Positions 12,045 through 41,482 of a stretch of 64,000 nucleotides of DNA are shown here, in pieces; positions within the stretch are counted from its first letter, which is position 1, and every line of letters begins with the position of its first letter. The position numbers and the translations under genes were made by a program. The notes beneath the pieces were generated by a model, which ran no database searches, was not told the origin of the DNA, and saw only the letters and a list, made by a program, of their open reading frames with translations. This DNA comes from Convolutriloba macropyga. Lineage: Eukaryota. The stretch lies in the NCBI RefSeq assembly GCF_964194025.1, contig NC_134468.1, forward strand, positions 47,616,001 through 47,680,000, read 5' to 3'.

Positions 12045-13310
12045 TGTTGTAAGAGTGTGGGGTATTTGTCTATTGGGGTAAATTGATGTAAGAGTAGTGG
12101 GGTAATTTGTTCTGATGGGGTAAAATGATGTAAGAGTTGGGCTGCAATAGGAGGTCTTTTGAGGAATTATCCCCCCTAACTCAATTTGGCATGTAAGAGT
12201 GGGATACAATAGGCTGCAATTGGAGGAATTTTGAGGAATTACCCCCAAACACCCTGACTAATATTGCCATGTAAGAGTGGGCCTCAATGGGCTGCAACGG
12301 GAGGATTTTTCAGGACTGACTGAAACTGCCATGTAACAGTGGGCTGCAATGGGAGGACTTGTGAGGAGTTACCCTCTGACTAAAAATGATATGTAAGAGT
12401 GGGCTGCAATGGGCTGCAATGGGAGGACTCTTCAGGAATGACCCCCATGACTAAAGTTGCCATGAAAGAGTGGGCTGCAATGGGTAAAGTGGTGTAAGAG
12501 TGAGGGGGTTATCTGTCCAGAGGGGGGCAAAATTAGCTAAGTTGAGCTGCCAAGGGGTGTAAAATGGTGTAAGAGTGAGGGGGTGATTTGTTCAGAGCAA
12601 GTAAAATAATGTAAGAGTTAGGTTGCCAAGGGGGGTAAAATGGTGTAACAGTGAGGGTGTAATTTGTTCTGAGGGGATAAAACGATGTAGGAGTGACGGG
12701 GTATTTTGTTGAGAGAGGGCAATTCCATTAAGTATTGTTCATATATATGCAGTCAAGAGCTGGACAAGCATTGATGGTCTGGAGGTTAGGGCAAAGCAGT
12801 TGAGGGTACAGAGGTTGTGGGCTCAAGACTGGCAATCTTCAGGTATGGGGGCTAAATCAATGTTAGATTGAGGGGCTAAAATGATGTAAGAGTTGAGCCG
12901 ACAGGGAGATAAGATGATGTAAGAGTGGGGCTGCAATGGGAGGATTTTTTAGGAAAACGTAGCTCAAAACTTACGTCTTTTTGGGCTGAATTGGGCTTCC
13001 AAGGGGGGTAAAATGGTGCAAAAGTGAGGGGGTAAAAGACAAATTAACCACCCAGTCACAAATCTTTTGGTCTGTCAAGTAGGGTACAACGATGTAAAGA
13101 TTGACGGTAACTTCCTCCTTACCTCCGAACTCTTACATCGTTTTAACCACAAAAAATTTAAGAGCGGGGTTAATTTGTCTCCTACCCCTCACTCTTGCAC
13201 CATTTTACCCCCGTTGGAAGCCCAGTGCAGCCCGAAAATATGTAAGAGTTTTCAGCTGCATTTTTTCTAAAAAATCTTCCCATTTCAGCTCCACTCTTAC
13301 GTCATTTTAG
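12045..13310. repeat. Degenerate G-rich minisatellite (core atgtaagagtgggctgcaatgggagga) with an inverted terminal arm
   Basis: Many recurrences of tgtaagagt(g/t)g. 13165-13310 is the reverse complement of ~12905-13053. Confidence 0.85.
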
Positions 13311-15112: not shown

Positions 15113-15378
15113 ACATAACCGACTAACGTCGGGCGAACAGCTCTCAAATGCCCGGCAAGCGGTTTGCTCCTTCAGTAAGTAGGCGTTGTTTAGTGAGGCT
15201 AGCTTTAGCCTAATTGAAGCAGCGTGAGGTGAGCCGAGCTAGGGGGCACGGTGGGTGAGGGGATCTTTGGCTGCACCGAGACCTTACGGCCTGAACGATA
15301 TTCAGGTGTGGGTATTGGGCGGGGGGCTGATGTAAATTGCGGCGGGTTGGGTTTGGGTTGGGCGGGGGTGGCTTGTGA
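15113..15378 (+). repeat. Dispersed short G-rich repeat with head aacataaccgactaacgtc
   Basis: The G-rich part recurs at 17060-17227 and 21405-21562. The head recurs on the minus strand near 57640, 59500 and 62710. Confidence 0.7.
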
Positions 15379-18300: not shown

Positions 18301-21300
18301 TTTAAAGAATTGCTGATAATTTAAAAGAAAATTGCTTAAAAGTGATATTAAAATCTTGAACTACATTCCATTAGACCTAGCAATGCCCACTATGCTGTAA
18401 CCTATTATCAAAACATAGCGGAGGTTCCTTGGCTTTTTAGGCTGCATGAACCTGAGAAATGACCCAAGTATTCTCAAAAAACTTGAAAAAGCAATTTTTA
18501 TCAAAAATGCTAAAATTTGCGGCTCACTATCCGATGAGTTTCAAGAAAAGTCATTGCCGAACAACGAAATCCTATTCAATAATATTTGGGATTTCACCCC
18601 CAAAAACGAAGATCACGATGAAAAAATTCATTAAAAAATGTTTATTGGAGAACAAACGTCATTGTGCTCAACAAAAACAATCTACATCAAACATTTATCG
18701 ACTACTTTGACTAAAACTTTTGTCGAGAAGGCACAATTTGATGGCTTATCATTTACGATTACAGCAATTTTTCAGCTCTTAATTCCCGCACGCGTCAAAA
18801 CTTTAAATTGTGGGTCTGTGATCAAAACGCTTACTAGGCGACCTCAAATTTCGAAAGGTCACCTAGACATCCTTTTCTTTGTAAAAAAACTGCAGAAAAA
18901 TGAACGTCCTAAGAAGAAATTCTGGCGGAAAGGAAGAAGGTCTGAAACAATTCATCCAACAAGCCTACTGAAACAGAAAGAATATCGACTGCAATTAAAA
19001 TTCTAACAGCAGAGCTCTCCCCAGGAATCTTCGCGCCGAATGATATAATCAATGAAAAACTCTACTTGAGTTAATCCATGAAAAACCCTCTCAAGCCAAT
19101 CTAAGCTATTTATTTAACCCCATGGATTCATTTCCATTTTGCACCACCCCTATATACTTAAAAAATTCAGTAAGACGGCAGTTCCAAAAGCGGGCAAGAA
19201 AATCCATGGCAGCCACAGTCCGTCAGTTTCAGACGCAAAAGATAGAAGAGCAAAATCTGAATAATTTCAGAGAGAACTGAAACAATAGTGTGAAAACGTA
19301 AACCAAATTGTTATCGGGATAGCTAGCAAAAGTTCCTGATATATAAATGGCAGCATATAACTTTTGTGGTCTCATACCATTCAAGAAAAACCCTGGAGTC
19401 AGAACAATTGCCGTTGGAGAAGTCTTGCGCTATGTTTTTGAGAGGTGTGTTATGAATCGCTTTTAAAGTGACTTGCTGTTCCTTGGAGGAACTATCCAGC
19501 TCTGCTTAGGCAAGAAATGTTTAAATAAATGTGCTAGTTTTTCTATGTATTATGCTTATGGTTCACGCAAAAATGAAGCAGTACTCCTAGTAGACGGCAA
19601 AAAAGCATTCAATTGGTCAATCAAAGACAAGTTTTTGAAAAAAATTTGCCCTGATTTCTGTTATATTGCACAAAACTTGTACAGAGACCCCTGCGATCTG
19701 TGTAAAGCCATCACTCGCTAGCAGCCCCAAGAATCCACCAGCCAGGGAGATCTTTTTGCATTGGCAAAGTATGATATACAATTACTCACATTGATTGACA
19801 TCATGCAAAACTAGAAAAAAGCATAAAAACTGCGCAGACAATGGCAGTCCGGTAGGAAGCTTATAGAAGCTGCAGAAATTGTTCATGGATTAATCCAGTC
19901 ATGGTAAGCCTATTCGATTCCTAGAATATGCTTCAAACTGCCAACTGATTGTAAAGGAGCACAAAAATCCAGATGTCTTGAATTTTTACAGCAAAATTTG
20001 TCGACATTGTAGACCGCTGCAGTGTTTATGGATCAGTTCTTGGCGGTGAAGATTCACCTGGAACCCTCTCAGCGTTAATAATTTTTTCCGAGCAATTGGA
20101 CGAAAAAATTGGGAAGTGCAACAATCATTTCTGCAAAACCGTTAGTCATGTTTAACGTGAAGTTTTCATTAACAATTTGTTTTTCTTGCTCAAAGAATTG
20201 CTAACACTCAGATTTTCTTCTTGGATGCAGGCAAAAATATGCAAAAAATTTTAGTAAACATGGTTTTGCGGCTCGCCCGTCACCGACAATGCACGCCAAT
20301 TTTATTCGCCAACTCAACATCAGGGAGCCAATGGAATAAAACACTAACTACACTAAGTCAGGCGCTGCTGTCAAGCCCATTGGAAAGAAAAGATCGCCCA
20401 TTTTTGCCTCATAGGGGATAAGATTACACAGAACAGACGCGACTCTACATTTTACTTAAGAGTGTGAAAGCTTGCAAAACAGTTATTATTTGAGGGCTAC
20501 GTGAAAACAAATGTCGGTTTGGCATCAAAAATAGAGCCTCGAACTGGAATATTGCTTTCAAAGTGAAGTGGTACGGTTCAACGTTGAGATTGGTACGGTT
20601 CAATGGGATTTCCGCAACCTCTTTGTGCAATCGGTACAATCTCAAAGGAAAAAGACCTATGTAACGCCCTTGAGGGGAAAATTTACACTAACCCATGTTT
20701 TCTACTGTACAAAAGGACTTAGAAGCCTAACTACAAATTTAGAGATATTCGCGAAATTAAGGCATGACGTTATATATATTATCAAAATTGAGCCATCACA
20801 TCAGTTATTAGAAGACAAAATCTTTCACAACAAATCTAACAGCAGTGATATTAACGCTCACTGATCAAAGCAAACATCTTGTACGTGTACAGATTCAGCA
20901 GTTTGTTCTTCGACATGAGAAAAATTATTTTGTTGGCTAAGTCTTGGTCAAATAAGATAAAGAGGAATAAGATAGCACGAAGCATTTAAAGATTTAAATA
21001 ACGACATTTTTTGGAAATTGAAAAATGGAATTCTGTTCGGTTCTCGTTTAGCTGCGCGAAAGGCGCATGGTGCTTTGCAATGGCACTATATAGCAACTAC
21101 TAACAGAAACAAAGAGCACGATGGAATAATTCATAAAGAAATGTTTATTGGAGAAAAAACTTCATAAAAAACAAAACCGGACCAAAAATTTGTCGACTAT
21201 TTAAAAAAAATTTTGTTGCGAAGGCACAATTTGATGGCTTATCACTTACGATCACCGCTGTTTTTCAGCTCTTAATTCTCGCACGCCTGAGAACTTTAAA

Positions 21301-21965
21301 TTGGAAGTCTGTGATCAAAGCGCTAACTAGGCGACTGCAAAACTCAAAAGGTCAACTCGAAAAACTTTTCTTTGAAGCAAAACGGCAAAAAAAACGAAAT
21401 TTTAGCCTGAGGTGAGCGGAACGAGGGGGCGCGGTGGGTGTGGGGATCTTTTGCTGCATCATGACCTTACAGCCTGAACGATATTCAGGTGTGGGTATTG
21501 CTCGGGGGGCTGATGTGAACTGCCGCGGGTTGGGTTAGTGGTTGGGTGGGGATGGATTGTGATCAATTTTTAAGAAGCGCCCTTGGCAACATAAGTATTA
21601 TCTCCAAAACACTTTCTGTTAATTGCATACTTCGAACTAGTGCGCTGAAAGGCTCTAAAGGAAATTAATGCACAGTGTGTGCTAATCATTTATAGCTTTT
21701 CTGAGGACGAAAAATCAAATTGGTCAGAAGAAAACTCGCCCACGCAAAAAACTGCGTGGAAATAAACCAATAGGACTATTCATTTTTACAAATTTGCTTG
21801 AGATCAATTAACAATGACTTCTTAAAAAAAGCTAGCTATCTCAATTATGATTAAAAAACTTATTTTCGTGCATTTTACTATAATACAGTGTTAATTAGAG
21901 TAACAGATGATGACATCACGCCACATAAAAGCGGCTGAAGCGCAACAACAACAAAAGAGTTAAGG

Positions 21966-22009
<44 letters not shown>

Positions 22010-24560
22010 TCTGGGAGATAGAAAAAGTAAACGCGAAAGAGACGCAAAAGCAACCCCCAACAGGGAAGAAGAACTAGGAATATTTTCCATGATGAGGTTT
22101 GATTTTGCAACTTCAGTGTTCTATCCTTTTTAGTGCTTAAATCATAAAGAAAAAAAAACTGAAATTTGTAAAATTAAAAAAAATTCCAGATTGTGTTGTA
22201 AAAAAAATGTCCAGAAACAATTTTTTGTCTCTGGAGTTCTGATACGTATCCCATCTGCAAGACCTCAAAACTTTCGCTGGCCAGTAATGATTGTTAAACT
22301 CAGTCTAAACAATCATGTTCAAAATATTTGCAAATTCTAACAGAAATTTGCTGAAATTCGTGACTTTTATATCTTCGGAACCATAAAATTGCCTCATGAG
22401 ACTATCCAGTATCCTTATTTCAAGCCCTAAAATGTCTCACTGGCTCAAAGATCCATAAAATTGGAACTTGATAATAATTTTCCGAAAGTTTCGAAAAGAA
22501 AGTAAATTCTATCAAAAATTTGCTAATGCTAGAGTTATTGACAACCATTCCAGTAACTCTAGAAATAATGCGGGAGATCCTTATCAAACCATAGAGGAGA
22601 TCCGTAGGCCACTGGTGCCTGAAATTTAGAAAACTCATAAACAATCGAAAATTTTAAAGAATTGCTGATAATTTAAAAGAAAATTGCTTAAAAGTGATAT
22701 TAAAATCTTGAACTACATTCCATTAGACCTAGCAATGCCCACTATGCTGTAACCTATTATCAAAACATAGCGGAGGTTCCTTGGCTTTTTAGGCTGCATG
22801 AACCTGAGAAATGACCCAAGTATTCTCAAAAAACTTGAAAAAGCAATTTTTATCAAAAATGCTAAAATTTGCGGCTCACTATCCGATGAGTTTCAAGAAA
22901 AGTCATTGCCGAACAACGAAATCCTATTCAATAATATTTGGGATTTCACCCCCAAAAACGAAGATCACGATGAAAAAATTCATTAAAAAATGTTTATTGG
23001 AGAACAAACGTCATTGTGCTCAACAAAAACAATCTACATCAAACATTTATCGACTACTTTGACTAAAACTTTTGTCGAGAAGGCACAATTTGATGGCTTA
23101 TCATTTACGATTACAGCAATTTTTCAGCTCTTAATTCCCGCACGCGTCAAAACTTTAAATTGTGGGTCTGTGATCAAAACGCTTACTAGGCGACCTCAAA
23201 TTTCGAAAGGTCACCTAGACATCCTTTTCTTTGTAAAAAAACTGCAGAAAAATGAACGTCCTAAGAAGAAATTCTGGCGGAAAGGAAGAAGGTCTGAAAC
23301 AATTCATCCAACAAGCCTACTGAAACAGAAAGAATATCGACTGCAATTAAAATTCTAACAGCAGAGCTCTCCCCAGGAATCTTCGCGCCGAATGATATAA
23401 TCAATGAAAAACTCTACTTGAGTTAATCCATGAAAAACCCTCTCAAGCCAATCTAAGCTATTTATTTAACCCCATGGATTCATTTCCATTTTGCACCACC
23501 CCTATATACTTAAAAAATTCAGTAAGACGGCAGTTCCAAAAGCGGGCAAGAAAATCCATGGCAGCCACAGTCCGTCAGTTTCAGACGCAAAAGATAGAAG
23601 AGCAAAATCTGAATAATTTCAGAGAGAACTGAAACAATAGTGTGAAAACGTAAACCAAATTGTTATCGGGATAGCTAGCAAAAGTTCCTGATATATAAAT
23701 GGCAGCATATAACTTTTGTGGTCTCATACCATTCAAGAAAAACCCTGGAGTCAGAACAATTGCCGTTGGAGAAGTCTTGCGCTATGTTTTTGAGAGGTGT
23801 GTTATGAATCGCTTTTGAAAATTAATCAAAGACTAGTTTTTGAAAAAAAGTCTGCCCTGATTTCTGTTATATTGCACAAAACTCATTTGGGATAAGATTA
23901 GATAAGACAAACGCAATGCTGCACTTGACTTAAAGATTTAAAGCTTGGACAACAGATCTTTTTTGCGAGCTACTCAAAAACAAATGTCATTTTGGCATTG
24001 AAAAAAAAGAGCCTCGAAGTAGATTATTGCCTTCAAAGTGAAGTGGTACGGTTCAACGTTGAGAAAATGGGATTTCCGTGACCTTTTTGTGCAATGGGTA
24101 CAATCTCAAAAGAAAAAGACCTATGTAACGCCCTTGAGGGGAAAATATACAGTAACCCATGTTTTCTACTGTACAAAGGGACTTAGAAGCTGCACGACAA
24201 ATTTAGAGACATTCGCGAAATTAATGCATAACGTTATATATGATATCAAAATTGAGCCATCACATCAGTTATTAGAAGACAAAATCTTTCACAACAAATC
24301 TAACATCGTGATATTAACGCTCACTGATCAAAGCAAACATCTTGTACGTGTACAGATTCAGCAGTTTGTTCTTCGACATGGGAAAAATAAATTTGTCGGC
24401 TAAGTCTTGGTCAAATAAGATAAAGAGGAATAAGATAGCAAGAAGCATTTAAAAATTTAAATAAAAAAATTTTTTGGAAACTGATAAAAAGATTTTTGTT
24501 CGGTTCTCGTTTAGCTGCGTGAAAAGCGCATGGTGCTTTGCAATGGCACTATATAGCAAC
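15210..24560 (+). repeat. Nested local tandem duplications (~1.85-kb and ~4.35-kb periods), each with a (GA)n microsatellite and CRE fragments
   Basis: Identical ORFs at 18446/22798, 18459/22811 and 18638/22990 (offset 4352). Near-identical ORFs at 15379/17227 (offset 1848). (GA)n at ~15790, 17638, 21971. Confidence 0.9.
18600..21100 (+). mobile_element. Decayed CRE-clade retrotransposon copy
   Basis: ITAIFQLLI, KKNPGVRTIAVGEVLR, EAVLLVDGKKAFN, QGDL, IEPSHQLLEDKIFHNKS. Confidence 0.8.
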
Positions 24561-24738
24561 TACTAACAAAAAAATACACATAATTGGTTGCAATAATTCC
24601 CATTCGGACAACAATAAATATGCACTCCTGCGCAACGAAATCTTCTGTCTCAGAGGCTGCCGTGCTACTAAAAGTGTTTCAATGGTTAATAATACCTATA
24701 GTGTTCTTTGTGGGAGAGGAGGTTATACACCAAGTTAG
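22950..24738 (+). mobile_element. Decayed, internally deleted CRE-clade retrotransposon copy
   Basis: Duplicate of the 18600 copy with the RT middle deleted near 23815-23885. Ends in YALLRNEIFCLRGCR. Confidence 0.8.
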
Positions 24739-24899
24739 TTGTGATTTTTCAACAATTTGATGCGGCTCCTGAAGTCTAGCATTGTGCAATAAGTTCAAAC
24801 CATAATTCACTAAATTTAAATTTGCTGCTGTGATGTTTCATTGAGGGGTTAACTGTTCGTCAATTGATTTGGTTTTATTTTCCCATAAAAGAATTGAGT

Positions 24900-27525
24900 A
24901 CCAAAACACTTACGTGCCAAAAGTCAGCAATGCCATTAGTAATGACTTAGCCAGAAGTCCATTTCCGTTCCAACTTTTTAACGTTCGCGTTTGTTTTGTG
25001 TTTTAAGCATTGCTATGCGACTCATTGTCACACGAACCGCTTCTCGTCACACGAATTGCTTTTTGTCACACGAACCGCTTCAGTTTTCTCCAAAAACGTC
25101 AAAAAGTCTCTGTGACTTCAAGCAAAGCGGGACCAAAACTTTGTCGACTGTTTGGAGGCAAATCCAAGCGAGACAAACGGTGTAAAAGAAAATCCATCGG
25201 ATTGGAGAATGATCTGAAACAATTTAACAAGTTCACACAAACAGGATTAATGTCGAACGCTATTAAAAGCCTAAAAGCAGAGCTCTCCTCATGAATCTTC
25301 TCGCCAAAGGAAACAATCAAATGGAAAAATTGTACATGAATTTTTCTATGAAAAACACCCACAACACTCTCAAGCCACTCTAAACTATTTTTAGCCCATT
25401 TATTATTTTCCATTCCAAACCACGCCTTTATACTTGAAAACTCGATTAAGGCGGCAATTCTCAAAGCGGCCTTGAAGAACCATGGCAGCCATGGTTCATC
25501 ATTTTCAAACGCAAAGTAAAAAAGGAGAAATCTGAATGGCTGGAAAGAGAACTCAGTCATTATTGTGAAAATGAAAGCGGAATTGTTATCGTATTAGACA
25601 GCGAAAAAAACATTTGATAAATAGTTGGCAGCGGATAATGTTTTTGTTCTCATACCACTCAACACAAACCCTGGTGTAAAACTATTTGGCCTTGGAGAAT
25701 ACTTGCGCCATGTTTTTGAGATCTTTTTTTATGAAGCACATTTAAAGTGACTTGCTGTTCCTTAGAGGACTTAGCCAGCTCTGCTTAGGCCAAAAATTTG
25801 GCAATGAATTTGCTATATATTCAATGTGTTGTGCGTATGATTATATCAATTATGAAGCAGTACTTTTTATATGATTTTCAAAAGAAATAGTGCATTCAAT
25901 TGCTGAATCAACATCTCAACTGGCTTCTGAACATTTAAAAAGATTTTGCCCTGATTTCTGCTATACTGCTCAAAATTCCTACACATTCCAATGCAACCTG
26001 TGTGTAGCTGGCAACGTATGGTATAGAAATACTCACATTGATTGACACCATGCAAAACTAAAAGCAAACGCAAAAACGGAGCACGGACAATGTCAGTCTG
26101 GTAGGGGGGTTAAAGAACCTGCTGAAGCTGTTCAAAGATTCTTTCGGTCATGATAAGGTTAATCGAAACCTTGAAGATGCTTCGAAAAACCAATTGATTG
26201 TAAAGGAGCACAAAAAAATCCAGATGACTTAAATTTTCAGAGCCAAACTTGTCGCTAATGTAGATCGCTGCAATATTTTTGGATCAGTTTTTGGCGGTGA
26301 AGGTTCACCTGGATTCTTCTCAGCGTTAACAATTTTTTCCGAGCTGTTTCAGAAAATTGGAAAGTGCAAGAATCATTTCTGCAAAACCGTTAGTCATGTT
26401 TAACGTGAGGTTTTCATTAACAATTTGTTTTTCTTGCTCGAACAATTGCTAACACTCAGAAATTTTTTCTTGGATGCAGGGAAAAATATGCAAAAATTTT
26501 AGTAAACATCGTTTTGCGGCTCGCCCGTCACCGACAATGCATGCCAATTTTATTCGCCGCCAACTCAACATCAGGGAGACAACGGAATAAAACACTAACT
26601 AACCAGAGTCAGGCGCTGCAGAAAAGCTCATTGGAAAGAAGCTATCAACCATTTTTGCCTCATAGGGGATAAGATTACACAAGACAAACGCAACGCTGCA
26701 CTTTACTTAAAAGTATGAAAGCTTGCAAAACTGATATTATTTTGTGAGTTAGGTGAAAACACATGTCAGTTTTGCAACTGAATAAGGAGCCTCGGACTGG
26801 ATTATTGCCTTGAAAATGAAGGGGTACGGTTTTATTTTGAGAAAATGGGATTTACGCAACCTTTTTGTGCATTCGGTGCAATCTCAAAAAAGAAACCTAT
26901 CTAACGGCCTTGAGGGGACAAAATTACTCTACCCATGCTCTCCACTCGGCAGAGGGACTTAGAAGCTGCACTATAAATTTAGAGACACGTTCGCCATATT
27001 AATGCATGATGTTTTCTCTTATATTGAATTTCAGCCATCACTTCAGTTATTAGAAGACGAAATCTTTCACAACAAATCTAACAGTAGAAAAATTAACGCT
27101 GACTGATCAAAGCAAACAACTTGTACGTGTACAGATTCAACAGTGTGTTCTTCAACATGAGAAAACTTAATTTGTTGGCTAAGTCATGGTCAAATAAGAT
27201 AAAGAGGAAAGGAAATAACGTGAGGCATTTAAAAACTTAAAAAATAACATTTTTTGGAAAATGAAAAATGGAATTCTGTTTGGCTCCTGTTTAGCTGGGT
27301 GAAGAGTGCATGGTGCCCGGCACTATATAGCAACTAGCAACAAAATTATTGGAAAGAAAAGGGCACACATAATTGGATGCAATAATTTTCATTAGGACAG
27401 CGATGACTTTGCACTCCTACGCAGCGAAATCTTCTGTCTCAGAGGCTGCCGTGTTACCAAAAGTGTTACCGTGGTTGATAAAAGCTGTAGTGTTCTTTGT
27501 GGGAGAGGAGGTTAGACACCAAATT
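24900..27525 (+). mobile_element. Decayed CRE-clade retrotransposon copy
   Basis: KQFNKFTQTGLMSNAIKSL, NHGSHGSS, NPGV..GEYLR, ..LLRSEIFCLRGCR. Confidence 0.8.
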
Positions 27526-27699
27526 AGTAGTGATTTTTCAACCGTTTGATGCGGCTCCTGAAGTCATTATAGCATTGTGCTGTAAGTTTAAAATACAATG
27601 AGCTAAAATTAAATCTGCTGCTGTGATAATTCATTGAGGGTTAGCTGTTCATCAATTGGGTTGGTTGTACTTTCCCATAAAAAATTGAGTATCAAAAAA

Positions 27700-30386
27700 C
27701 TCGCGTGCCAAAAGTCTGCAGTGCCATTAGTTATCACTTAGCCAGGAGTCCAATTCCGTTGCAACTTTATAACGTTCGCGTTTGCTTCGTGTTTTAAGCC
27801 TGGCTATGCAACTCATTGCAGAAGTAACTTCGAGCTTCTGACATAATAGTCACACGAACCGCTTCAATGTTCTTTTAAAAAAACGTCAAAGGTTCTCTGT
27901 GACTTCAAACAAAGCGGGACTAAAAATTTCTCGACTGTTTTGAGGCGAACCCCAGTGATACAAACGGCGTAAAGAAAATCTAGCGGATTGGAGGATGGTC
28001 TGAAACAATTTAACAAGTTCTCAAAAACAGGAATACTATCGAACGCAATAAAAAACCTAACAGCAGAGCTCTCCTCGGGAATCTTCTCGCCAAAGGAAAC
28101 AATCAATGGAAAAACTGTACTTGAATTACTCTATGAAAAACACCCACAACACTCTCAAGCCACTCTAGACTATTTTTTAGCCCCTTTATTAATTTCCATT
28201 TCATACCGCGCTTATATACTTGAAAACTTCATTAAGGCGGCAATTCTCAAAGCGGGCTTGAAGAACTATGGCAGCTACGGTCATGTGCCGCATTTTCAGA
28301 CGCAAAGGAAAAAAGAAGAAATCTGAATGGCTTGAAAGAGAAATCAGTCAATATTGTGAAAAAGAAAAGGGAATTGTTATCGTATTAGCCAGCAAAAAAA
28401 ACTACTGATAAAAAGTTGTTATCCTATTATGTTTGTCTCATATCACTCAAAAAAACCCTGGAGTTAAACTAATTAGCGTTGGAGAAGCCTTGCGTCATGT
28501 TTTTGAGAAGTGTGTTATGAAGCACTTTTAATGTGGCTTACTGCTCCTTGGAGGAATTAGCCAGCTCTGCTTAGGCCAAAATTTAGGCAATGACTTTGCT
28601 ATAAATTCAGTGTGTTGTGCTTATGATTCTCCCATTTATGAACCAGTACTTCTTATATACTTTCTAAAAGAAATACTGCATTCAATTGCTCAATCAACAA
28701 ATGATTTTTGAAAATATAAAAAAAAATTGCCCTGTTTTCTGCTACCTTGCTCAAAATTGATAAACAATCCCGTGCGACCAGTGTGTAGTTGTCATCCGCT
28801 AGCAGTCCAAGAATCCACTAGCCAGGGAGATCTTATTGCAATGGCAACGTTTGGTATGAAGCAATAATCGCATTGATTGACTTCATGTAGAACTCCAGGA
28901 GAAAATCAAAAACGGAGCGCCGACAATTGAAGACAGGTAGGAGGCTTAAAAACCTGCTGAATCTGTTCATGGACTTACTCGGTCACGATAAGCTCATTCG
29001 ATACCTAAAATATGCTTCAAAAATCAATTGGTTGAAAAATTCAGCTTGCTTAAATTTTCAGAGCAAAACTTTTCCACATTGTAGATCGCTGCACTGTTTT
29101 TGAATCAACTCTTGGCAATGAAGTTTTACCTGGAGTCTCCTCAGTGATAAAATTTTTTCTGAGCTGCTTCAGAAACTGGGAACCCGCAAAAATCAATTCT
29201 GCAGAAACCGTTAGTCATGTTAAACGTGAAGTTTTCCATAACAATTTGCTTTTTTTGTTCGAACAATTGCTAATACTCAGAACTGTTTCCTAGATGCGGG
29301 GAAAAATAAGCAAAACTTTAAAAAACGTTGTTTTGCGACTCGCCCGTCACTGATGCACGCCAAATTCCTTTCGCAACCGACTTCAAATCGCGGAGCCAAT
29401 GAAATAAAACACTAACTACAATTAGTCAGGCGCTGCTGTAAAGCCCATTGGAACGGACGTCATGGACGATGCACGCCAATTTCATTCGCCATCAAGACCG
29501 TTGGAAAGAAGGTATCAGCCATTTTTTCTTCATTTGGGATAAAATTAGATAAGACAAACGCAATGCTGCACTTGACTTAAAGGTTTAAAGCTTGGACAAC
29601 AGATCTTTTTTGCGGGTTACTCAAAAACAAATGTCATTTTGGCATCCAAAAAAGAGCCTCGAAGTAGATTATTGGCTTGAAAGTGAAGGCGTAGGGTTTT
29701 ATGTTGAGAAAAAGGGATTTCCGCAACCTTTTTGTGCTTTCGGTACAATCTCAAAAAAGAGACCTATCTAACGGCATTAAGGGGAAAAATTACACTAACC
29801 TATGCTCTCCACTGTGCAAAGGTACTTAGAAGCTGCACTACAAACTTAGAGACACATTCACGAAGTCAATGCATGACGCTTTCAATGACGTGGATTTTGA
29901 GCCATCACTCCAGTTGTTAGAAGATGAAGTCTTTCACAACAATTCTAACAGCACTGGGATTAACGCCTACTGATCAACGCAAACAACTTGTGGGGTCCAG
30001 GTTCACCAGATCGTTGTTCGACATGAGAACGATTAATTTGTCGGCTAAGTAATGGCCAAGGCAGATAAAGAGGAATTGAAACAACACGAGGCATTTAGAA
30101 AATCTAAATAAGAACCTATTTTGGAAATTGAAAATTGCAATTCCGTTTGGTTTTTGTTTAGCTGCGTGAGAAGCGAGTGATGCTCTGCAACACGTACTAT
30201 CAAGTGAATTGCGACAAAAATCTTCGAAAAACAATGATGACACAAACTCAGACGCAAAAACACATATTCGCATTCCTACGCAGCGAAATCATCTGTCTCA
30301 GAGGCTGCCTTGTTACTAGAATTGTTACTGTGGTTGATAATAACTGTAGTGTTCAGTGTGTAGAAGAGGAGTTAAACACAAGTTAG
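27700..30386 (+). mobile_element. Decayed CRE-clade retrotransposon copy
   Basis: KQFNKFSKTGILSNAIKNLTAELSSGIFSP, LYEKHP, QGDLIAMA, FAFLRSEIICLRGC. Confidence 0.8.
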
Positions 30387-30989
30387 TAGTGGTTTTTCAA
30401 CGTTTTGATGCAGCTCCTGAAGTCTAGCATTGTGCTATAAGTTTAAAACCCAATGCGCCAAATTTAAATCCGCTGCTGTGATGTTCCAATGTGGAGGTTA
30501 AGTGTTCTTCAATTGGGTTGATCAAGCTGTTCCTAATTATTGTGTATTTTTGGAGAATAAATCTCTACTCACCAGTTGTAGTAGTTGAAAATTCTGGGCA
30601 TTACTTACAATCACGGGGGTCAGCAGCCCTGTCTTTGGTCCATGGTACAGCGCATAAAATTAAACAAGTCATTCTCGATGCATATCGCGGAGTTGAAAAT
30701 TTAATGAAAATAGAAGCGATCTAAATGAAACAATTGGAACCGCATTTAAATGCGATCGACGAATACGTGGTGCGGGACTTGACATTGAAGTATTATTTCA
30801 AATGCAAAAATTTTTGACTTTTGAATTTCAAAAATTTTTCTGATACATGTTGATTCGAAATTATGTCAACCCCAACAAGTAAGGGATAACAGCAGACAGG
30901 AATGAAAGTAAAAACTCCTTTTCAAGAATTGAAAACAAATAACCGTGAATTTCAAAAACTCCAGTAAAGAACTGCCTCTTATAACACTC

Positions 30990-33360
30990 ACGTGCCGCAA
31001 GTTTGCAGTGGCATTAGTGAAAAATTCGATTTCCGTTGTAATTATAAAATGTACGCGTTTGTTTCGAGTTTTTGCACTGTTACGTGACCCGGCAGAAAAT
31101 CTGAATAAATATCACGAATCGCTTTTTGCTGCTTCTCAGGGACTTCAAACAAAGTGGCCCAAAAATTTGTTGACTGTTTTGTCAAATCTTTGAAATTCTT
31201 TGCTGAGGAGGAACGGTTTGAAGGCTTCTCATTTAGGATCACAGCAATTTTTCAACTCTTAATTTTTGCATGCGGGAAAACTGTAAATGATGGGTTTGTG
31301 ACCGAAAGCTTACAAGGTGGCTTCCAATTTCGAAAAGATCAATTAGACGAATTTTCTCTGAGGCAAAATCCCTGCAAAACAAACTTTCAAAAAAATTCTA
31401 AGCGGAATGAAGGATGCTCTGAAACACTTTAACCATTTTATGGACACAGGAAAAATTTGGAACACAAATAATTGCCTAGCAGCAGAGCTCTCCTCAGGAA
31501 TCGCCGAGGAATAAAATCATTGGAAAATTGAAATTAAAATTTTCCATGAAAAACACTCATAACGTTCTCTAGCCAATCTAATTTTTTTGACCCGCAAGCC
31601 TTCAATTCTTTTATATACCAGCCCACTATAATTGAAAACGTCAGCGGTGTCCTTGAAAACCAATGGCAGCCACGGTAAACTCAATTTCAAACGCAAAGAA
31701 TTGCTGGCAGGTTCTGAATGGCTTCAAAGAGAATTCAGCCAATAATGCGCAAACTTTATCCAAATTGCTATCAGATCAGCCAGTGAAAAATTACTAACAA
31801 TTATTTGGCCGCATACAAGGCCTTTAGGCTCATACCACTCAAAAAAGACGTTGGAGTTAGACCATTTGGCATTGGAGAAACCACGCTACTTAATTTTGGG
31901 AAGCGTATCATGAAGCGAATTGAAAATGATCTCCTGTTCTTTGAATGTATTAGCCAGCTTCGCCAGGCCAGAAATGTTGAATTGAGTGTGCTAAATACTG
32001 CATGCGTTGTGGTTATGATTTTCCCGAAAACAGAAATCCTTTTAGACGCCAAATTTGCATTCAATCGCTCAACCGACCTTTTGTTTTGGACATATAAAAA
32101 ATTTCCTTGTTTCCATCTGCGCTGATCAAATTCCCTCAGCCCCGTGCAAACTGTGTTTAGCCGTTATTTGATAGCAGTCCTAAGAATACAGCAACCAGGG
32201 AGATCCCACAGCCATGGCAATTTATGGTATAGCATTAGTCAGAATGATGAGCAGCATGTGCAACTACAATGGAACGCAAAAGTGATGCACAGACAATCGC
32301 ATTCCTGTAGGAAGTTTGGAGAACCTGCTCAAATTGTTGATTGACGTATCCAATCATGGTAATCTTACTGAATACCCAGAAGATGCTTCCAAATGCCAAT
32401 TGATTGTAAGGGAGCACGCAAAATTCTGATCTCTTTATTTTTTAGACGAAATGATATTGATATTGTAGATGGCTGCAGTGTTGTTTTCGGGATAAGTCCT
32501 TGGCGGTGGAGACTTTCCTGAAACCTGCATAGCAAATAATTTACGAATTATTTTTTCCAGAGTTTTTCAACAAAAATTAATTTTCTTGTTCGAACAATTC
32601 CTAACGCTCTCTTTCTCAGAACGATTTCTTTCAAGCGAAGACAAATATTCAAAAGTTCATCTAGACATCGTTTTACGGTTCATCGTCACCAAAGATGAAC
32701 GCCAATTGTTTTCGCTAGCAACTCAACATCATGGAGCTAACCGAAATCGACACTGACTGCGCACTGCATTTTTTGGGGAAAATTCAAACTAACCCACGCT
32801 ATCTATTGTGCAAAATGGTTTATACTAAGAAGCGGAACAACCAAATTAGCGACAGGTTCGCGAAAATATTGCATGACGTTTTCTATGACGTCTAAGTTGA
32901 GCCATCACTTCAGTTGTTAGAAGGCGAAATCTTTCACAACAAATCTAATAGCACTGATATTAACGCTCATTGATCAAAGCAAATAGCTTTTGGGGGTCCA
33001 GATTCAACAGATTGTTCATCGTTTTGAGAACAATTATTTGTTTGCTATGTCATGGCCAAAGAAGCTAAAGAGTCATAGAAATATCACGAGGCAATTAAAA
33101 ATCTGAATAACAATTTATTTTCGGAAATAGGAGAAAGCGATTTTGTTCCGCCTTTTTTCTGTGTGGGAGGCGCATGGTGGTCTGAGAAACTTACTTTAAA
33201 GCAAATGGCAACAAAAATCTTTGCAGGAAAAGATGACATATTTTCGGAAAAAAATTCTGTTCAGACAAAGATAGGTTTTGAACCCCTACACAGCGCTATT
33301 GAATGTGTCAGGGGCTGTCGTGATAGAAAACGTGTAATCCTAGATTGGATACTTGAATAG
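30990..33360 (+). mobile_element. Decayed CRE-clade retrotransposon copy
   Basis: AYKAFRLIPLKKDVGVRPFGIGE, LDAKFAFN, QGDPTAMAIYG, EPSLQLLEGE, SAIECVRGCR. Confidence 0.8.
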
Positions 33361-35830: not shown

Positions 35831-36179
35831 AAGTTCAAAATACAATTCGCTAAATTTGAATCCACTGCTATAAAGTTTCAAAGTGGGTAATAGCTGAACC
35901 GTCCATTGGGTCGATCATACCCTTTCCCATTTTTGTTGTATTGTAGAATAATAAACCTCTGCTCATCCCCAAATCCCCCAACTTCAGCAGTAGGAGAAGC
36001 AGTAGTAGTAGNNNNNNNNNNNNNNNNNNNNNNNNNNNNNNNNNNNNNNNNNNNNNNNNNNNNNNNNNNNNNNNNNNNNNNNNNNNNNNNNNNNNNNNNN
36101 NNNNNNNNNNNNNNNNNNNNNNNNNNNNNNNNNNNNNNNNNNNNNNNNNNNNNNNNNNNNNNNNNNNNNNNNNNNNNNN

Positions 36180-36450
36180 CTAGACGCGCTCCTGGGGGGC
36201 AACGGAAAACGTGGATGAGTCAAATCGAAGGAGACTATGTACGAAACAAAGTATCGTTCACCAGATTGCAGGAGAAAAGTATCGTTCACCAGATTGCAGG
36301 AGAAAGCAGCAACCGGGTCAGAGAATGCCTTCAACAATTTCGTCGTACAGCACTTCACAGAATAACCAAACAAATAACTCTTCTTGTTTTGTTTGTATTT
36401 GTTGCCAACCGTGCCTTTATTTCATATTTGGAATTAAAGTGTTGAAACAG
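36180..36450 (+). mobile_element. 3' end of RTE-clade LINE family A
   Basis: Near-identical to 45443-45682 with an internal 27-bp duplication. Ends ggaattaaagtgttgaaacag before (TAG)n. Confidence 0.9.
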
Positions 36451-36491
36451 TAGTAGTAGTAGTAATAGTAGTAGTAGTGGTAGTAGTAGTG

Positions 36492-36544
<53 letters not shown>

Positions 36545-36591
36545 TGTAGTATTTGTAGTAGTAGTATTTGTAGTAGTAGTAGTAGTAGTGT
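36451..36591 (+). repeat. (TAG)n microsatellite tail of the RTE element
   Basis: Directly visible. It resumes after the gap at 36739-36746. Further TAG runs at 36001-36011, 50804-50820 and 51577-51591. Confidence 0.97.
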
Positions 36592-36746
36592 NNNNNNNNN
36601 NNNNNNNNNNNNNNNNNNNNNNNNNNNNNNNNNNNNNNNNNNNNNNNNNNNNNNNNNNNNNNNNNNNNNNNNNNNNNNNNNNNNNNNNNNNNNNNNNNNN
36701 NNNNNNNNNNNNNNNNNNNNNNNNNNNNNNNNNNNNNNGTAGTAGT

Positions 36747-37478
36747 TGCCACACGCGTGTTTTTCCTGCAAAGTACAAGATGTTCTCGGAAACGAATTTG
36801 AAAACATAGAAGCGTTCAAGTATCTCGGATCATATGTCAGCCTCAAGCATGGAGACCTGCAGGAAGTCAATTGCAAACTTGCAGAAGGTAGACAACGGTT
36901 TGCTAACTTCCAAAATCTCTGGAAGAGCAAGCAGCTCAGCGTGCACCTCAAGTGCAATTTGTACAAAGCACTCGTTTTATCAGCCGTGCTGTACAGCTCA
37001 GAGACTTGGACTCTTTCGAAATTAATTGAGAGAAAACTTGAGAGTTTCCACTGTGGTTGTCTTCGGAGAATTCTACGTGTGTCATATCTGGAGAAAACAA
37101 CGAACGAAGAAATTATGTCAAGATCACGAATGCCCCAACTATCCCGATGATCATGCTCAAACGGATAAAATGGTACGGACACATCCAGAGAATGGAACCA
37201 GGAAGATTAGCCGCAGTGCCTTCGATTGGGACCCGCCCGATCAATACGTCCATGCTAGACGCGCCTCCTGGGGGGCAACGGAAAACGTGGATGAGTCAAA
37301 TCGAAGGAGACTGTGTACGAAACAAAGTATCGTTCACCAGATTGCAGGAGAAAGCAGCAACCGGGTCAAAGAATGCCTTCAACAATTTCGTCGTACAGCA
37401 CTTCACAGAATAACCAAACAAATAACTCTTCTTGTTTTGTTTGTATTTGTTGCCAACCGTGCCTTTATTTCATATTTG
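36747..37478 (+). mobile_element. 5'-truncated RTE-clade LINE family A copy
   Basis: Near-identical to 44933-45682 (FKYLGS..LYSSETWTL..WYGHIQRM). Starts directly after gtagtagt. Confidence 0.92.
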
Positions 37479-39045
37479 NNNNNNNNNNNNNNNNNNNNNN
37501 NNNNNNNNNNNNNNNNNNNNNNNNNNNNNNNNNNNNNNNNNNNNNNNNNNNNNNNNNNNNNNNNNNNNNNNNNNNNNNNNNNNNNNNNNNNNNNNNNNNN
37601 NNNNNNNNNNNNNNNNNNNNNNNNNNNNNNNNNNNNNNNNNNNNNNNNNNNNNNNNNNNNNNNNNNNNNNNNNNNNNNNNNNNNNNNNNNNNNNNNNNNN
37701 NNNNNNNNNNNNNNNNNNNNNNNNNNNNNNNNNNNNNNNNNNNNNNNNNNNNNNNNNNNNNNNNNNNNNNNNNNNNNNNNNNNNNNNNNNNNNNNNNNNG
37801 CTATTCGGAGCAGCGGGGGTCCGTATCAGCGGCTGTCCCAGACGCCGCTGCTCAGTGTGATCAACTACGTCCTATGTGCAGAGCCTAGACTAGGGGCCCT
37901 AGACAGCGGAAACCTGGCTGGGAGGGTAGCTCGACATCGCTACTATTAGATAAGACCTTAACATTTAACTTGCCGGACGGAAAAATGCCCACTACCGGCC
38001 TAGTAGTGGACCCTAATATCGTGGGTGATCAGACCTAGCTGCTACACCCCTTTTTAGCACAGAAGTGAGTGATAATATTTTTTCATAGGCTGATTTCTGC
38101 ACATTCCTAAGGCTCTTGAAAGTGATCTAAAGTTTTTCTGAAAGCTCTCTAGCACCACTACAATTTGTGTTTTCGGCTTTTTCAAATTTCAAGCTATAAA
38201 GATGGGCTAACTTTTTAGTAGTAGGTTGGTGAGCACACCACGCTGCTAGTGCTTATACGTGTGTGAGATTCCCAATTTACATTTTGGATGACTTTTTTTT
38301 GCACCAATATCATTGTTTTGGCCTAGAAAGACATCCTAGTATAGGAATTAGGTATCTAAAATCATTATTTGTGGTGCCTACATAGCGGTGGTTGTGGAAA
38401 GAGAGAGGAGCCTACTGCTAATATTGAAGATAAAAACTTCTCTCATTTTCAACATGTTGTTGATTCACAACACGTTTTTCACTGTCTAGAGCTACAACCT
38501 ACCTGTATGGACACTGCAAGAAAGTATAAAAAGTTTCTACAAGCCTCTGAGTGAAATCTGTGCTCAGTAATAACAGTGACACCTGACACAAAAATTCATC
38601 AAAAAATTGATCACGTAGCCTACTGATAGCCACTACTGGGTAGTCACCCCACTTCTTGCACTTATCCACTTGAAATATTGGTCTCTAATTCTGATCTCAA
38701 TAGAAAACAAGATGTAGCCCCAACATTTGAATTAACGTCTCCTCTTGATCCTTTTCTATATACATGGGCTTTGAAACATGGTTGAAACGGGCCACGGACC
38801 CGACTGCTAGAGCAGTTTTTGAAATGCATAATCCGAGTAACATAAATGTATATATAACGAAAGATAGGCTACACAGTAGCTAAAACAAATTAAAACAATA
38901 AACAAAGGTGAGATTTCATAACAAGGATAATAAAACAACAGTAAGCTTAACACAACATCAACATCACTATAAAACAAAAGAAGTTTAACAAAATTAGCAA
39001 TGAAGTCCTGTCTCACCAGTTTGAGTACTAAAGTTTGTAGGTCTC

Positions 39046-41146
39046 TTACTCGGCCAGCCGATTCACTAGAGCTTTAAGTTTGTCATAGATCTTGTTGACG
39101 GTGTTTTTATGGGGATTTCTACCCAGTTTTTCACGAATGGTTGCCGAAATCTGCTGCTTATTCGGCGTTGTCTTTATTTGAGCAAAAAGTAAAAGTAGGC
39201 CTTTCTCCTCCGCTCTCCAATTAATTCTACCAGAGAATTTGTTTAGACTAGCAATAAACTCCTTCCTCCTCCTGTCCGGGACCACACTCTGGAGTTTTCT
39301 GGCGGATACAGTGGAAGAAAACACCGAGAGATTCTCATCTACGTCTGAGAAATCTTCTTGCTGCGGGTCAAATTCTTCTTCGTCGTCCTCATCCCCCCCT
39401 CACCATCAGACTGAAGATAGTTACCCAATTCCTCTGCTTCTAGGTCGCTGTCATCTTCCATGGCGTCGACGTGTTGTTCATGGGCTTCCACCTCAAACAT
39501 AGCAGTCACGTCCTCCTCATCCATATCCGACTCATTATCACTGAGGTCCTCTCTCACTTCTCTGCTAGCGCTTGGTCCAGCCTTTTGTTCGTACAAATGG
39601 GGGAAAATGGGGTCACCGGGCTCGCTACAATTGAAATAGATGGTCTCTCTGTTCATCTCGTCGAATTCTTCAGGCGTTACGTTAGAGGGGAGGGTTCTGA
39701 TTCTCTCTGTTGGTATGCGAAAAAGCTTCCCATATTCTTGCAGCACCTTCCCTGTATTTATAAGGTCCATCACGTAGTGTCTCGATTCCGTCTTGTCCTC
39801 GTGCGCAGTCTGATTTAAATGTGCTTGGTAGAGTTGTGGATTCTTTTCTTTTTGCCCATACATGTAAGTTGATAACACTCTTCTCATTGATGTCGGGTTA
39901 AAACTTTTAGTGAGGAGGGACTTCGGTGCTACTTCAGTTAACGAGTCCTTCACGAAACGTGCGATCGACTTCTCTTTTTGGTTAAGGATGGTGGGAAATA
40001 TGTACAAGGGCTCCATTCCGGTCTCCTTCCTGAATGCGGAAAACATTTGCTCGAACCATGGGACCTGGGGCACGGTGAGCTCGAATTTCACAGCAAATTG
40101 AGCACCTGTCTTGTGATCTGTTGAGTACACGGGTTCGCCTCGTCGCATTGATGCCCACTGTTCGTATTTTAAGTTGAGAATTGGTCCAGGTCTGGTACCG
40201 GATAAGGAGTGAAAGTAAAAGAAGACCAGACCCTTCAGCAAGTTGTATGAATACTTATCAGACGTCGGACTATCAAGGTGGTCCGTGACACACTGTAACA
40301 TCGATGCACATTCATCTGCTGTCGGGGTCTCTTCCTTCTTCTTGTTCATCAACAAAACTTGATCTTTCTTCATTTGGTGTCTGTAATCACTTGAAATTTC
40401 GCTCAGAACATCAACCCAAATGTCATACGGAAGTCTTATCTGTTTTTGGTTTCGCTTTATGTACCTGAGGTACTTTTTGAGAACGACAATGAAAACAACC
40501 ATACTACTAGCCTTGTAGTTCCCATTCTTCTTTATTTCGTCAATAAATTTCGCTGCTTCGTCATGTCTCTTGAACTGCCCGGTGGTAACCCACAAACGAT
40601 TAAGATGGTGTTGAAAAGTCTTTGTCACGCGTTTATGAACTGCGTCCGTGCTGTTATTCTTTCTGCTAGCTTTCTTCACTAGGTCACGCACAAAATACTC
40701 AAGGAGCACTCCTCCATTCACCTTTGGCTCTCTGATTTGAGTTAACTCGTCTTGAATGAATTCAGGCATCTCTCCTGGGTCCTTGGGGTTGTTGATACGG
40801 ACTATATCACTGTCAAAGTGATCACGGAGGCTGCTGCTAGTCTTCTTATTCCTCTCGTCTCCCTTCTTTTTGTGATCAGTTTGGTTCACGAATCGACGCA
40901 AGCACAGAGTGCAATCATAAACAGGATCTTTACATGACCCGGAACGATTAAAGTGCCTCCTACAATCCAAGAGATACAGTCTCACACTCTTCGTCATCCT
41001 GTAGTGGGATTTTTGGTAGTGCTGTGCCATATCGGCCAATTTCCTTCCGCACACATAACAGCGGGACTTCTTTATCACACGATGCACTCTGGGACTATCC
41101 AAATGTTGGATCTCGTCAAGATCAGAAGCCTCTGATATCGGGTCGG
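39046..41146 (-). CDS. Exon 2 of a tyrosine recombinase (Crypton-like) gene: zinc finger(s), YR catalytic domain, acidic tract, Myb/SANT-like tail; one-base frameshift at 39393-39399
   Basis: SGTRPG (R), DHKTG (K), PTSMRR (box II R), TAHEDKT (H), RHY (Y). C2H2 finger CYVC..HYQKSH. Adding one G to the G7 run joins the 587-aa ORF to the 39046-39324 ORF (..RINWRAEEKGLL). Acceptor TTTTTTTTTAG ends at 41147. Confidence 0.8.
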
Positions 41147-41220
41147 CTAAAAAAAAACTCAGAATGGATACCGTATATATATATAGCTACGAAGTCTGAT
41201 CTCACTAAATAAAAACTTAC

Positions 41221-41482
41221 TGTACATCAAGCGGCCATACGGAGTTCGGTGTGCACTTATTTGCGAGTCTAGCTGGCTGTCCTTATCAATCTCCCGATTT
41301 TCACAATTCCTCGTCTTCTTCTTGGGCGTTGGTGTTGTTAGCTGGGACCGCTTTCTTTTAGTAGTGGGAGCTGACGTGCTTGGGCCAGCAACTTCGGAAG
41401 TTGTCTCAATATAATCATGGCTTTTCAGAACAATTTCATGCGCGGGGAGTTCCGGCGTGAAGGTACAAACTGTATCATCCAT
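41221..41482 (-). CDS. Exon 1 of the tyrosine recombinase gene (basic NLS-like N-terminus)
   Basis: ATG at 41482, TKRKR..PKKKTR. The GTAAGT donor at 41220 and a 74-bp intron (41147-41220) join in frame, phase 1 (..LMY-T-DPISEASDLDEIQHLDSPRV..). Confidence 0.7.

Follow-up and report, generated by a model that had tools for sequence, protein, structure and literature searches.

A probable CryptonV-like tyrosine recombinase transposon and its possible targeting of (TAG)n repeats

Introduction

Between copies of RTE-type retrotransposons, a 64,000-nt stretch of the Convolutriloba macropyga contig NC_134468.1 (the window; all positions given here are window coordinates) holds a gene, predicted to be spliced, for a tyrosine recombinase. 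The locus raises two questions: to what kind of element the gene belongs, and whether its place next to TAG repeats reflects a target preference. A sequence-only reading had taken it for a near-intact gene of a Crypton-like DNA transposon or of a virus-derived element. We conclude that the element is, with little room for doubt, a DNA transposon driven by its recombinase. A more specific reading, to which we assign a probability of about 0.65, is that of a recently amplified, recombinase-only transposon of the Crypton kind, approximately 4.2-4.7 kb long, which targets TAG repeats and is most like CryptonV. The features of the locus are compiled in Table 1.

Recombinase Domains and Active Site

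An AlphaFold model computed from a 47-row alignment of the family (pLDDT 79) confirms, at the level of a predicted structure, the presence of a core-binding and a catalytic domain of the lambda-integrase fold. Residues 155-470 of the model match tyrosine recombinases in VIA, led by XerH (Z 13.2, rmsd 4.8, 281 residues aligned) and followed by Tn1549 Int (Z 12.0), Cre (11.4) and lambda Int (11.2); the first unrelated row scores Z 7.5. XerA and lambda Int are the top Foldseek rows. The sequence-only reading had named a missing lambda-integrase fold and a single-copy gene that is syntenic in relatives beforehand as grounds for its rejection; the fold was found, with Z values of 11-13. Over 250-280 residues, both domains superpose on XerH, the Int proteins of Tn1549/Tn916, Cre and lambda Int, and the His and Tyr of the active site are nine residues apart in Cre and lambda Int, as they are in the window protein. 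The window gene differs from these systems by 8-14% identity only, by its eukaryotic intron, and by the zinc fingers, the acidic linker and the extra C-terminal domain of its product.

At the sequence level, Phage_int_SAM_1 is a weak match (E 0.072 for P0001, the protein of the exon-2 frame, where it is the best Pfam match, and 2.2e-4 for P0181). A PDB sequence search with the 47-row profile returned nothing better than E 0.09. NCBIfam gave a single XerA-type match (E 0.0065) in one of 35 members, and PHROGs called an integrase in one of five proteins, namely P0183, which also exceeds the Pfam cut-off for Phage_integrase (38.1 vs 27.1 bits).

Five of the six residues of the canonical R-K-HxxR-H/W-Y set are present, their roles being taken from order and spacing rather than from a residue-level superposition. 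The set R332-K359-T432-R435-H462-Y471, described before as R-K-(H replaced)xxR-H-Y, is kept across the 47 rows: R332 occurs in 47 of 47, K359 in 46, R435 in 43, H462 in 40 and Y471 in 39. Position 432, which corresponds to the His of HxxR, is N in 24 rows and T in 19 (N or T in 43 of 47), and His in none. As far as the alignment tells, replacement of this His is a family-wide trait.

Both flanks of the recombinase carry additional domains. Where one N-terminal C2H2 finger had been proposed, a zinc-finger-like motif is indeed present, but there are two in tandem, kept in distant relatives and modelled with pLDDT 68-90; Pfam makes no C2H2 call for P0001. By their presumed function, the twin motifs probably constitute an arm- or target-binding domain. 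The C-terminal domain had been labelled Myb/SANT-like. Its W-x2-EE motif, found in many relatives, and the conserved helical domain around it are borne out, and the label is not matched by structure or profile: Pfam has no match, Foldseek reports nothing under E 1, and the best VIA rows (Z 5.3) are unrelated, non-Myb helical chains. Apart from the motif, the label goes back to one Atlas cluster at 0.92 with PF00249 in 40% of its members, and we would call the domain Myb-like by motif only.

Copies, Subfamilies and Decay

The element is a young, recently amplified, multicopy mobile family with several subfamilies. A homolog search revealed eight clusters at 51-98% identity, three of which comprise 54 (98% identity), 17 (73%) and 20 (57%) proteins. 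The 15 listed members of the 54-member cluster are all located on contigs of different size, and many of its members are truncated. Repeating the search from the first alignment yielded close copies only. The gene is multicopy with decayed copies, which disposes of the second of the two grounds for rejection.

Contigs from four of ten listed runs were aligned to the element, leaving out X6 and X7, which have small shares; X1 to X4 come from one study, whose source is possibly shared with the ENA proteins. Run X1 yielded 154 aligned contigs, 59 of them less than 90% alike, and the window differs from the major core contig of this run in six of 2014 letters (0.3%). The ends of the element body are represented by five records per run in X1 and X4, and all of its 30 bins are covered by contigs, edge to edge. 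Five joints are listed for the run contigs, all of them internal deletions. The single-contig depth is 427 in the core and 481-797 at the ends in X1, and 800-961 and 1449-1633, respectively, in X4; ends deeper than the core are as expected from non-autonomous derivatives. An end-to-start joint, as a circle would leave it, is not among the five joints, the ends being outside the covered stretch and rare forms being lost in contigs. Run X5, which bears another organism label, contains pieces that are more than 99% identical at low depth, from either a sister species or a mixed sample.

At 41001-41010, contigs of X1, X4 and X5 reveal foreign sequence joined to the gene via a doubled GTAGTG, and the depth rises about twofold there. 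Beyond the level of chance, nothing in the window matches the sequence joined at 41010. The inner junction of a numerous non-autonomous family could account for this joint, as could an insertion into a TAG-like site.

Gene Structure

The visible body of the element is flanked by two N gaps of 321 bases (37479-37799) and 251 bases (41945-42195). Both true termini are inside these gaps, such that the full size amounts to approximately 4.2-4.7 kb, given a correct scaffold. No similarity of the body to the remaining window was found.

The N-terminus encoded by exon 1 recurs in P0015, P0016 and P0019 and matches no Pfam family. Splicing of intron 1 is predicted from its splice signals and from the tolerance of frame changes among copies: the internal (TA)n run is of copy-dependent size, with an extra TA in run X5, and three of the eight proteins that enter the intron read through it in an altered frame. 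The reading LFLADP/LFSADP of the sister subfamily across the acceptor would fit a kept YAG. Taken together, 262 and 2101 nt make 788 codons minus one base, i.e., about 787 amino acids for an in-frame copy. The arithmetic of the sequence-only reading, a 74-bp intron and a repair by one G, therefore holds, and natural in-frame copies exist (three of nine; see below).

Between 37800 and 41944 there is no reverse transcriptase (RT) and no other long open reading frame (ORF); every other frame of at least 80 codons overlaps the recombinase gene, and tblastn with the RTE ORFs gave nothing better than E 0.2 in this segment. Neither a DDE transposase nor a viral gene (capsid, polymerase, helicase) is linked to the recombinase gene. 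Since, moreover, the gaps are too small for a further gene, we take the recombinase to be the sole enzyme of the element. A match to Rfam was found nowhere in the window.

DIRS, Ngaro and VIPER elements were considered and rejected, as had been anticipated for DIRS: the element has no RT or RNase H, and the flanking RTs carry an apurinic-type endonuclease and 3' tails of their own.

Table 1. Coordinates of the recombinase element, its gene and protein domains, and its neighbours in the window
Feature	Position	Strand	Remarks
Visible element body	37800-41944	-	4145 nt, N gap on each side
Exon 1	41221-41482	-	262 nt = 87 codons + 1 nt; low-complexity, basic; start codon inferred
Intron 1 (predicted)	41147-41220	-	74 nt, phase 1, GT-AG, GTAAGT...TTTTTTTTTAG; internal (TA)n
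Exon 2	39046-41146	-	2101 nt through stop
Two tandem zinc-finger-like motifs	40872-41060	-	C-x2-C-x9-H-x4-H (C43-C46-H56-H61) and C-x2-C-x9-H (C92-C95-H105)
Core-binding (SAM-like) domain	40332-40724	-	structural alignment with XerH, Cre and lambda Int from model residue ~155
Tyrosine-recombinase catalytic domain	39774-40331	-	R332 (40193), K359 (40112), T432 (39893), R435 (39884), H462 (39803), Y471 (39776-39774)
G7 run, frame shift within acidic linker	39393-39399	-	majority form in X1 and X4
Candidate second intron (hypothetical)	39345-39403	-	59 nt, ATG/GTGAGG...TTTCTCAG/AC; frame kept at any G-run length
C-terminal four-helix domain	39049-39285	-	W-x2-EEK and KIYDKLK motifs; aligned in 24 rows; pLDDT 83.7
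33-nt direct repeat, copy 1	38390-38422	+	candidate arm-type binding site; last word CTACTGCTA
33-nt direct repeat, copy 2	41527-41559	+	45 nt upstream of start codon
9-bp perfect inverted repeat near left end	37808-37853	.	AGCAGCG core again at 38241 and 41938-41944 (right edge)
Nested cluster, (TAG)n at both bounds	36003-50820	.	TAG runs 36003-36011, 36451-36588, 50806-50820
Left neighbour, 3' end of 5'-truncated RTE-type retrotransposon	36741-37478	+	95% identical to 44927-45682
Right neighbour, near full-length RTE-type retrotransposon (endonuclease and RT)	42196-45682	+	Exo_endo_phos 1.1e-10, RVT_1 3.8e-20

A Frameshift Shared by Most Copies

A run of seven G within the acidic linker shifts the reading frame. 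The exon-2 frame stops at 39341-39339, 17 codons past the run, while the C-terminal domain (P0143) lies in another frame that is open from 39399 to 39049. The sequence-only reading had repaired the shift by one G. The shift is present, but it is the majority form in X1 and X4 and no private lesion of this copy. In X1, one gap-free contig with a depth of 427 spans 39030-41043; in X4, a gap-free contig with a depth of 961 extends to 39399, and a longer G run occurs in one contig (depth 138.5), where it has to be considered that contigs lose rare variants and that long-read assemblies can introduce homopolymer errors. Nine close proteins span the site, the window protein included: three are in frame, four are shifted as in the window, and two stop. 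Judged by the protein letters, the copies differ in the length of the run, with equivalents of 6, 7 and 8 present. Either the family was amplified mostly in the shifted form, or the G run slips repeatedly.

As the shift leaves the catalytic part untouched, the simplest view is that most copies encode a protein with an intact catalytic part and no C-terminal domain; these copies would either work without this domain or be moved in trans by the in-frame minority. Programmed -1 ribosomal frameshifting at the G run is not favoured, the downstream 83 nt folding like its shuffles (z 0.14).

A further account concerns the frameshift only and is compatible with a CryptonV-like transposon: the G run may be part of a newborn 59-nt intron. 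Splicing would drop about 20 linker residues and restore the C-terminal domain, and G7 copies would be fully autonomous. The sole G/GTRAG of exon 2 starts 4 nt ahead of the G run, and an in-frame YAG acceptor follows 59 nt on, about 23 nt behind the branch-like word TTTGAC. The occurrence of run lengths 6, 7 and 8, with G7 dominant in X1 and X4, points the same way. However, a frame-keeping acceptor is cheap, as 14 frame-keeping GT-AG pairs are listed in exon 2; another YAG lies nearer, at 43 nt, but out of frame, and there is only a weak polypyrimidine tract. In the in-frame copies and the 76% subfamily, the same stretch plainly encodes acidic protein sequence. Moreover, the first G of the run doubles as the final base of the donor word, such that these two features are not independent. 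The intron is hypothetical, and we consider it a tentative possibility, with odds clearly against it.

Element Ends and TAG Repeats

The element sits between two head-to-tail RTE copies, not within one. The RTE label of these neighbours stems from the sequence-only reading rather than from a phylogeny. At 36449-36589, (GTA)n follows the 3' end shared by the left neighbour, as it does every RTE-type 3' end whose downstream sequence is visible; a (GTA)n tail is therefore expected at the start of the left gap. The right neighbour is short of approximately 240 nt at its 5' end, judged by a related copy with 243 nt upstream of the matching point. This missing part would fill most of the 251-base right gap.

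As the termini are hidden in the gaps, a preference for (TAG)n is suggested indirectly, by TAG-like words in the ends, by the position between TAG-tailed RTEs and by one loose end; to this extent the target shared with the RTEs, which the sequence-only reading had raised, gains support. An unbiased count against the remaining window revealed CTGCTA/TAGCAG as the top 6-mer of the non-coding ends (7 vs 0.6 expected; p 3e-6 before correction for approximately 2000 words). CTRCTA occurs there 11 times vs 1.9 in shuffles (0 of 300). At the left, one diverged contig each in X1 and X4 runs about 20 nt beyond 37800 and then reads AGTA (nearest 30 of 51 letters seen), which would fit, if thinly, a terminus abutting a GTA repeat.

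The two 33-nt direct repeats are identical in 30 of 33 positions (E 2.9e-6; score 54 vs a maximum of 44 in 200 shuffles), and the window contains no third copy. The DNA fold of the 9-bp inverted repeat has a z of -2.5 in a 71-nt segment and is not significant in one of 146 nt. The 33-nt repeats, the TAG-like words and the inverted repeat may represent arm-type sites that mimic the target. Long terminal inverted repeats (TIRs) were not found in the visible 4145 nt, where the best inverted end alignment scores 27.5 vs a shuffle mean of 26.6. Cryptons in the broad sense have no long TIRs and carry direct repeats of 4-6 bp at their termini, or none.

Two further observations on the left loose end may be due to chance. 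Left of 37808, it shows a 5-bp palindrome around a 7-nt spacer, resembling a small recombinase core site. It also holds TATGG, in one contig per run, the pentamer that marks CryptonS ends according to passages of PMC3212892.

For Cryptons, excision as a circle and reintegration by the recombinase have been put forward as a proposal (parts of PMC3212892), and transposition is without experimental demonstration according to passages of PMC13565253. Along this line, the recombinase would bind both ends at CTGCTA-type sites and the 33-nt repeats, with help from either its zinc fingers or its helical C-terminal domain, and strand exchange via a 3'-phosphotyrosine at Y471 would release the element as a circle. 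The circle would integrate at a short core shared with (TAG)n. Tails of RTEs would keep renewing the (GTA)n target, such that both types of element would pile up in the same tracts.

Wider Family

A scan of 1.84 billion protein representatives gave 63 matches; of the distant ones, most are 19-35% identical. The 24 relatives that were fetched in full length share the layout of zinc fingers, recombinase and C-terminal helical domain. Among 20 distant clusters the only name is 'hypothetical protein', in one cluster, and three of ten clusters of distant relatives comprise 10-16 members on many contigs. Atlas neighbours at 0.96-0.97 are unnamed eukaryote clusters, most commonly of Chordata, Arthropoda and Cnidaria, which points to an animal as the probable host. 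A tree of 45 catalytic domains, for which two of the 47 rows were dropped as too short and which has no named reference for rooting, places the window clade with P0063 and P0056 (96/87).

A profile of the distant members reached 14 proteins, of which four carry a SET domain, and recovered P0188 at E 1.1e-7. P0188 represents a second, distant recombinase type; it aligns with the window clade at 97.7% probability (E 1.8e-12, all motifs in register) and at 16% identity over 251 columns. SET domains are joined to the recombinase protein in P0075, P0180, P0181, P0182 and P0185, N-terminally in the three that were fetched, with long peptide repeats as joiner in two cases.

Searches for related loci produced pattern matches and no confirmed locus in viral contigs including IMG/VR (two alignments; 15 and 113 pattern matches), in metagenome contigs (two scans; 7 and 405) and in genome contigs (one scan; 15).

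Two of ten other distant clusters show one contig size each: P0066 with P0119-P0122 (five members, contig size 21251) and P0068 with P0123 (two members, 11875). These sizes suggest tandem arrays of four and two copies, respectively, at approximately 5-6 kb per gene.

Comparison with Known Systems

CryptonV DNA transposons were reportedly described by Kapitonov and Jurka in Repbase Reports in 2012. Proteins of the pattern R-P-G/HKT/T-x2-RK/H-x8-Y, such as P0188, are presumably what repeat libraries label Crypton-V. Families of CryptonV insert in microsatellites, according to passages of PMC8869645, and the class name appears in parts of PMC5753468 and PMC4455052. The window element resembles them as a recombinase-only DNA transposon with a microsatellite-associated, though here inferred, insertion; furthermore, Cnidaria, from which CryptonV was named, are represented among its nearest Atlas clusters. 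It is a Crypton-type and probably CryptonV-like transposon, and the assignment to a divergent family of Crypton-like DNA transposons made by the sequence-only reading is upheld by the lambda-integrase fold, the multiple copies and their decay.

With CryptonA, I, F and S the element shares the single recombinase gene, the lack of an RT and of a visible long TIR, and internally deleted derivatives (passages of PMC3212892), while the His of the catalytic tetrad is N or T across the window family. According to the same passages, CryptonA and I have no terminal repeats and no domain after the recombinase, in contrast to the C-terminal helical domain conserved in 24 rows here, and CryptonS is confined to oomycetes and diatoms. 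DUF3504, the CryptonA-type domain, is absent among the Pfam families matched by the 47 members at E 0.05, and GCR1_C, the C-terminal domain of CryptonF, has no Pfam match in P0143, P0004, P0031 and P0056.

Starship captains (DUF3435) and DIRS/Ngaro recombinases have the same fold, with Atlas values of 0.92 to DUF3435 clusters and 0.86 to a cluster with ALOG and Phage_integrase. They differ from the window family, whose 47 members match neither DUF3435 nor ALOG and which has no cargo, RT or RNase H. A transposon clade that combines SET, zinc finger and recombinase, or one that is targeted to TAG, was not found described in the literature searched, a scope that leaves Repbase and most subscription journals outside.

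Alternative Explanations

Several points weigh against a TAG-targeting transposon most like CryptonV. The termini and any target duplication are hidden in the N gaps, a single insertion site was looked at, and the adjacency to RTEs depends on scaffolding through repeats. The TAG evidence at the left end comprises four letters of one contig per run, and CTRCTA is mildly enriched in the coding part as well (6 vs 1.5, reached in one of 300 shuffles). The likeness to CryptonV is one of description and not of sequence comparison. A frameshift in the majority of copies is awkward for an autonomous element, and the conserved His of HxxR is replaced, if family-wide. As to amplification, summed depths of contigs cannot be read as copy numbers, and several assemblies of one organism may have contributed to the ENA proteins.

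The strongest competitor is the same Crypton-like transposon without target specificity, which would have landed by chance or been placed here by the scaffold, its TAG-like words being its own binding sites. That one site with both junctions in gaps is at hand agrees with it, as does the fact that close relatives lie on dozens of contigs with unread flanks; besides, passages of PMC3212892 describe animal CryptonA and I without terminal repeats. However, a TAG dimer with one mismatch leads the unbiased 6-mer count of the ends, the left loose end starts with AGTA, and long TAG runs make up only a few hundred of the 64,000 bases, with the element sitting where one is expected. We regard chance placement as possible but rather unlikely.

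Considerably bolder, and doubtful in our view, is the combined proposal of a deep clade of animal recombinase transposons, distinct from CryptonV and comprising at least 63 clusters at 50% identity, with twin zinc fingers, an optional SET domain and a C-terminal helical domain of their own, which would be kin to nimaviral integrases, home to (TAG)n via internal target mimics and feed on the tails of a TAG-tailed retrotransposon, its dominant young lineage being autonomous through the newborn 59-nt intron.

The virus-derived origin that the sequence-only reading had left open is not supported. The element would then be an orphan or fragment of a larger element of nimavirus, Polinton-like-virus or herpesvirus type, with the recombinase as its integrase. 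Passages of PMC10871703 (Kawato et al.) report nimaviral integrases with a C2H2 motif, an N-terminal SAM-like domain and five of seven key residues located, encoded by elements that insert in telomere repeats or 28S rDNA. By this description, endogenous nimavirus recombinases resemble ours in the layout of C2H2, SAM-like domain and recombinase, in the incomplete residue set and in the repeat-specific insertion that is suggested here, and a shared ancestry of the proteins is possible. They are, however, genes of large viral genomes (one of 579 kb), whereas at most about 4.7 kb with a single gene fit between the RTE pieces here, and contigs cover the body from edge to edge; the apparent tandem relatives, too, have approximately 5-6 kb per gene. 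Structural matches in BFVD are generic integrases only (phage integrases and VLF-1, 8-16% identity); none of its top 50 rows, several of them unnamed, is named as an integrase of a nimavirus or Polinton-like virus, and the two patterned scans yielded no IMG/VR relative. We consider a viral origin improbable.

Still less probable is that the recombinase element was there first and that the RTEs landed in its TAG-rich ends. The abundance of TAG-like words in these ends and the RTE copies next to both gaps agree with it. However, 37800-41944 is free of RTE sequence, and no sequence of the element lies beyond the RTEs; one flank is an RTE 3' end and the other belongs to the 5' part of a different copy, which speaks against the RTE landing site within the element considered in the sequence-only reading. 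On the outside, the cluster is bounded by TAG tracts in non-element DNA, and the order of arrival cannot be read from a single locus. A domesticated host gene multiplied by segmental duplication, to which the intron and the repeated domestication of Crypton recombinases (passages of PMC3212892) might point, is very hard to reconcile with many broken copies, subfamilies of 98 to 51% identity, deletion derivatives, the majority frameshift and a fully kept catalytic set.

Other Features of the Window

Within the nested cluster, two RTE-type families (approximately 68% identical) both end in (GTA)n and, downstream of the RT, contain an insert that is rich in Cys and resembles a zinc finger. The second family, beside a gap, contains a 274-nt inverted duplication (96%; 48844-49117 and 49863-50136), either a 5' inversion of a twin-priming-like kind or an assembly artefact.

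Outside the cluster, positions 1-5700 hold tandem units of approximately 1.49 kb and, after these, a minus-strand bHLH reading frame (4968-5678; HLH, E 8.5e-9). G-rich degenerate repeats of 40-78 nt with inverted copies, resembling the subterminal repeats of foldback-type elements, occupy 12044-13250. The region 15300-33300 shows tandem or dispersed duplications at spacings of about 1.85, 2.8 and 4.35 kb with 60-100% identity. Long reading frames are lacking there, and the region may be a complex satellite or a cluster of multi-exon genes.

Conclusions

Without confirmed targeting and the second intron, the element represents one more Crypton-like family. The SET-bearing relatives may be transposons with a chromatin writer of their own. 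The second intron, if true, would be a neat example of a transposon rescued from a frameshift by the birth of an intron. A family as young (0.3% from the major form), abundant and catalytically complete as this one, with a simple repeat as its apparent target, would offer a direct system for the study of a eukaryotic repeat-targeting recombinase.

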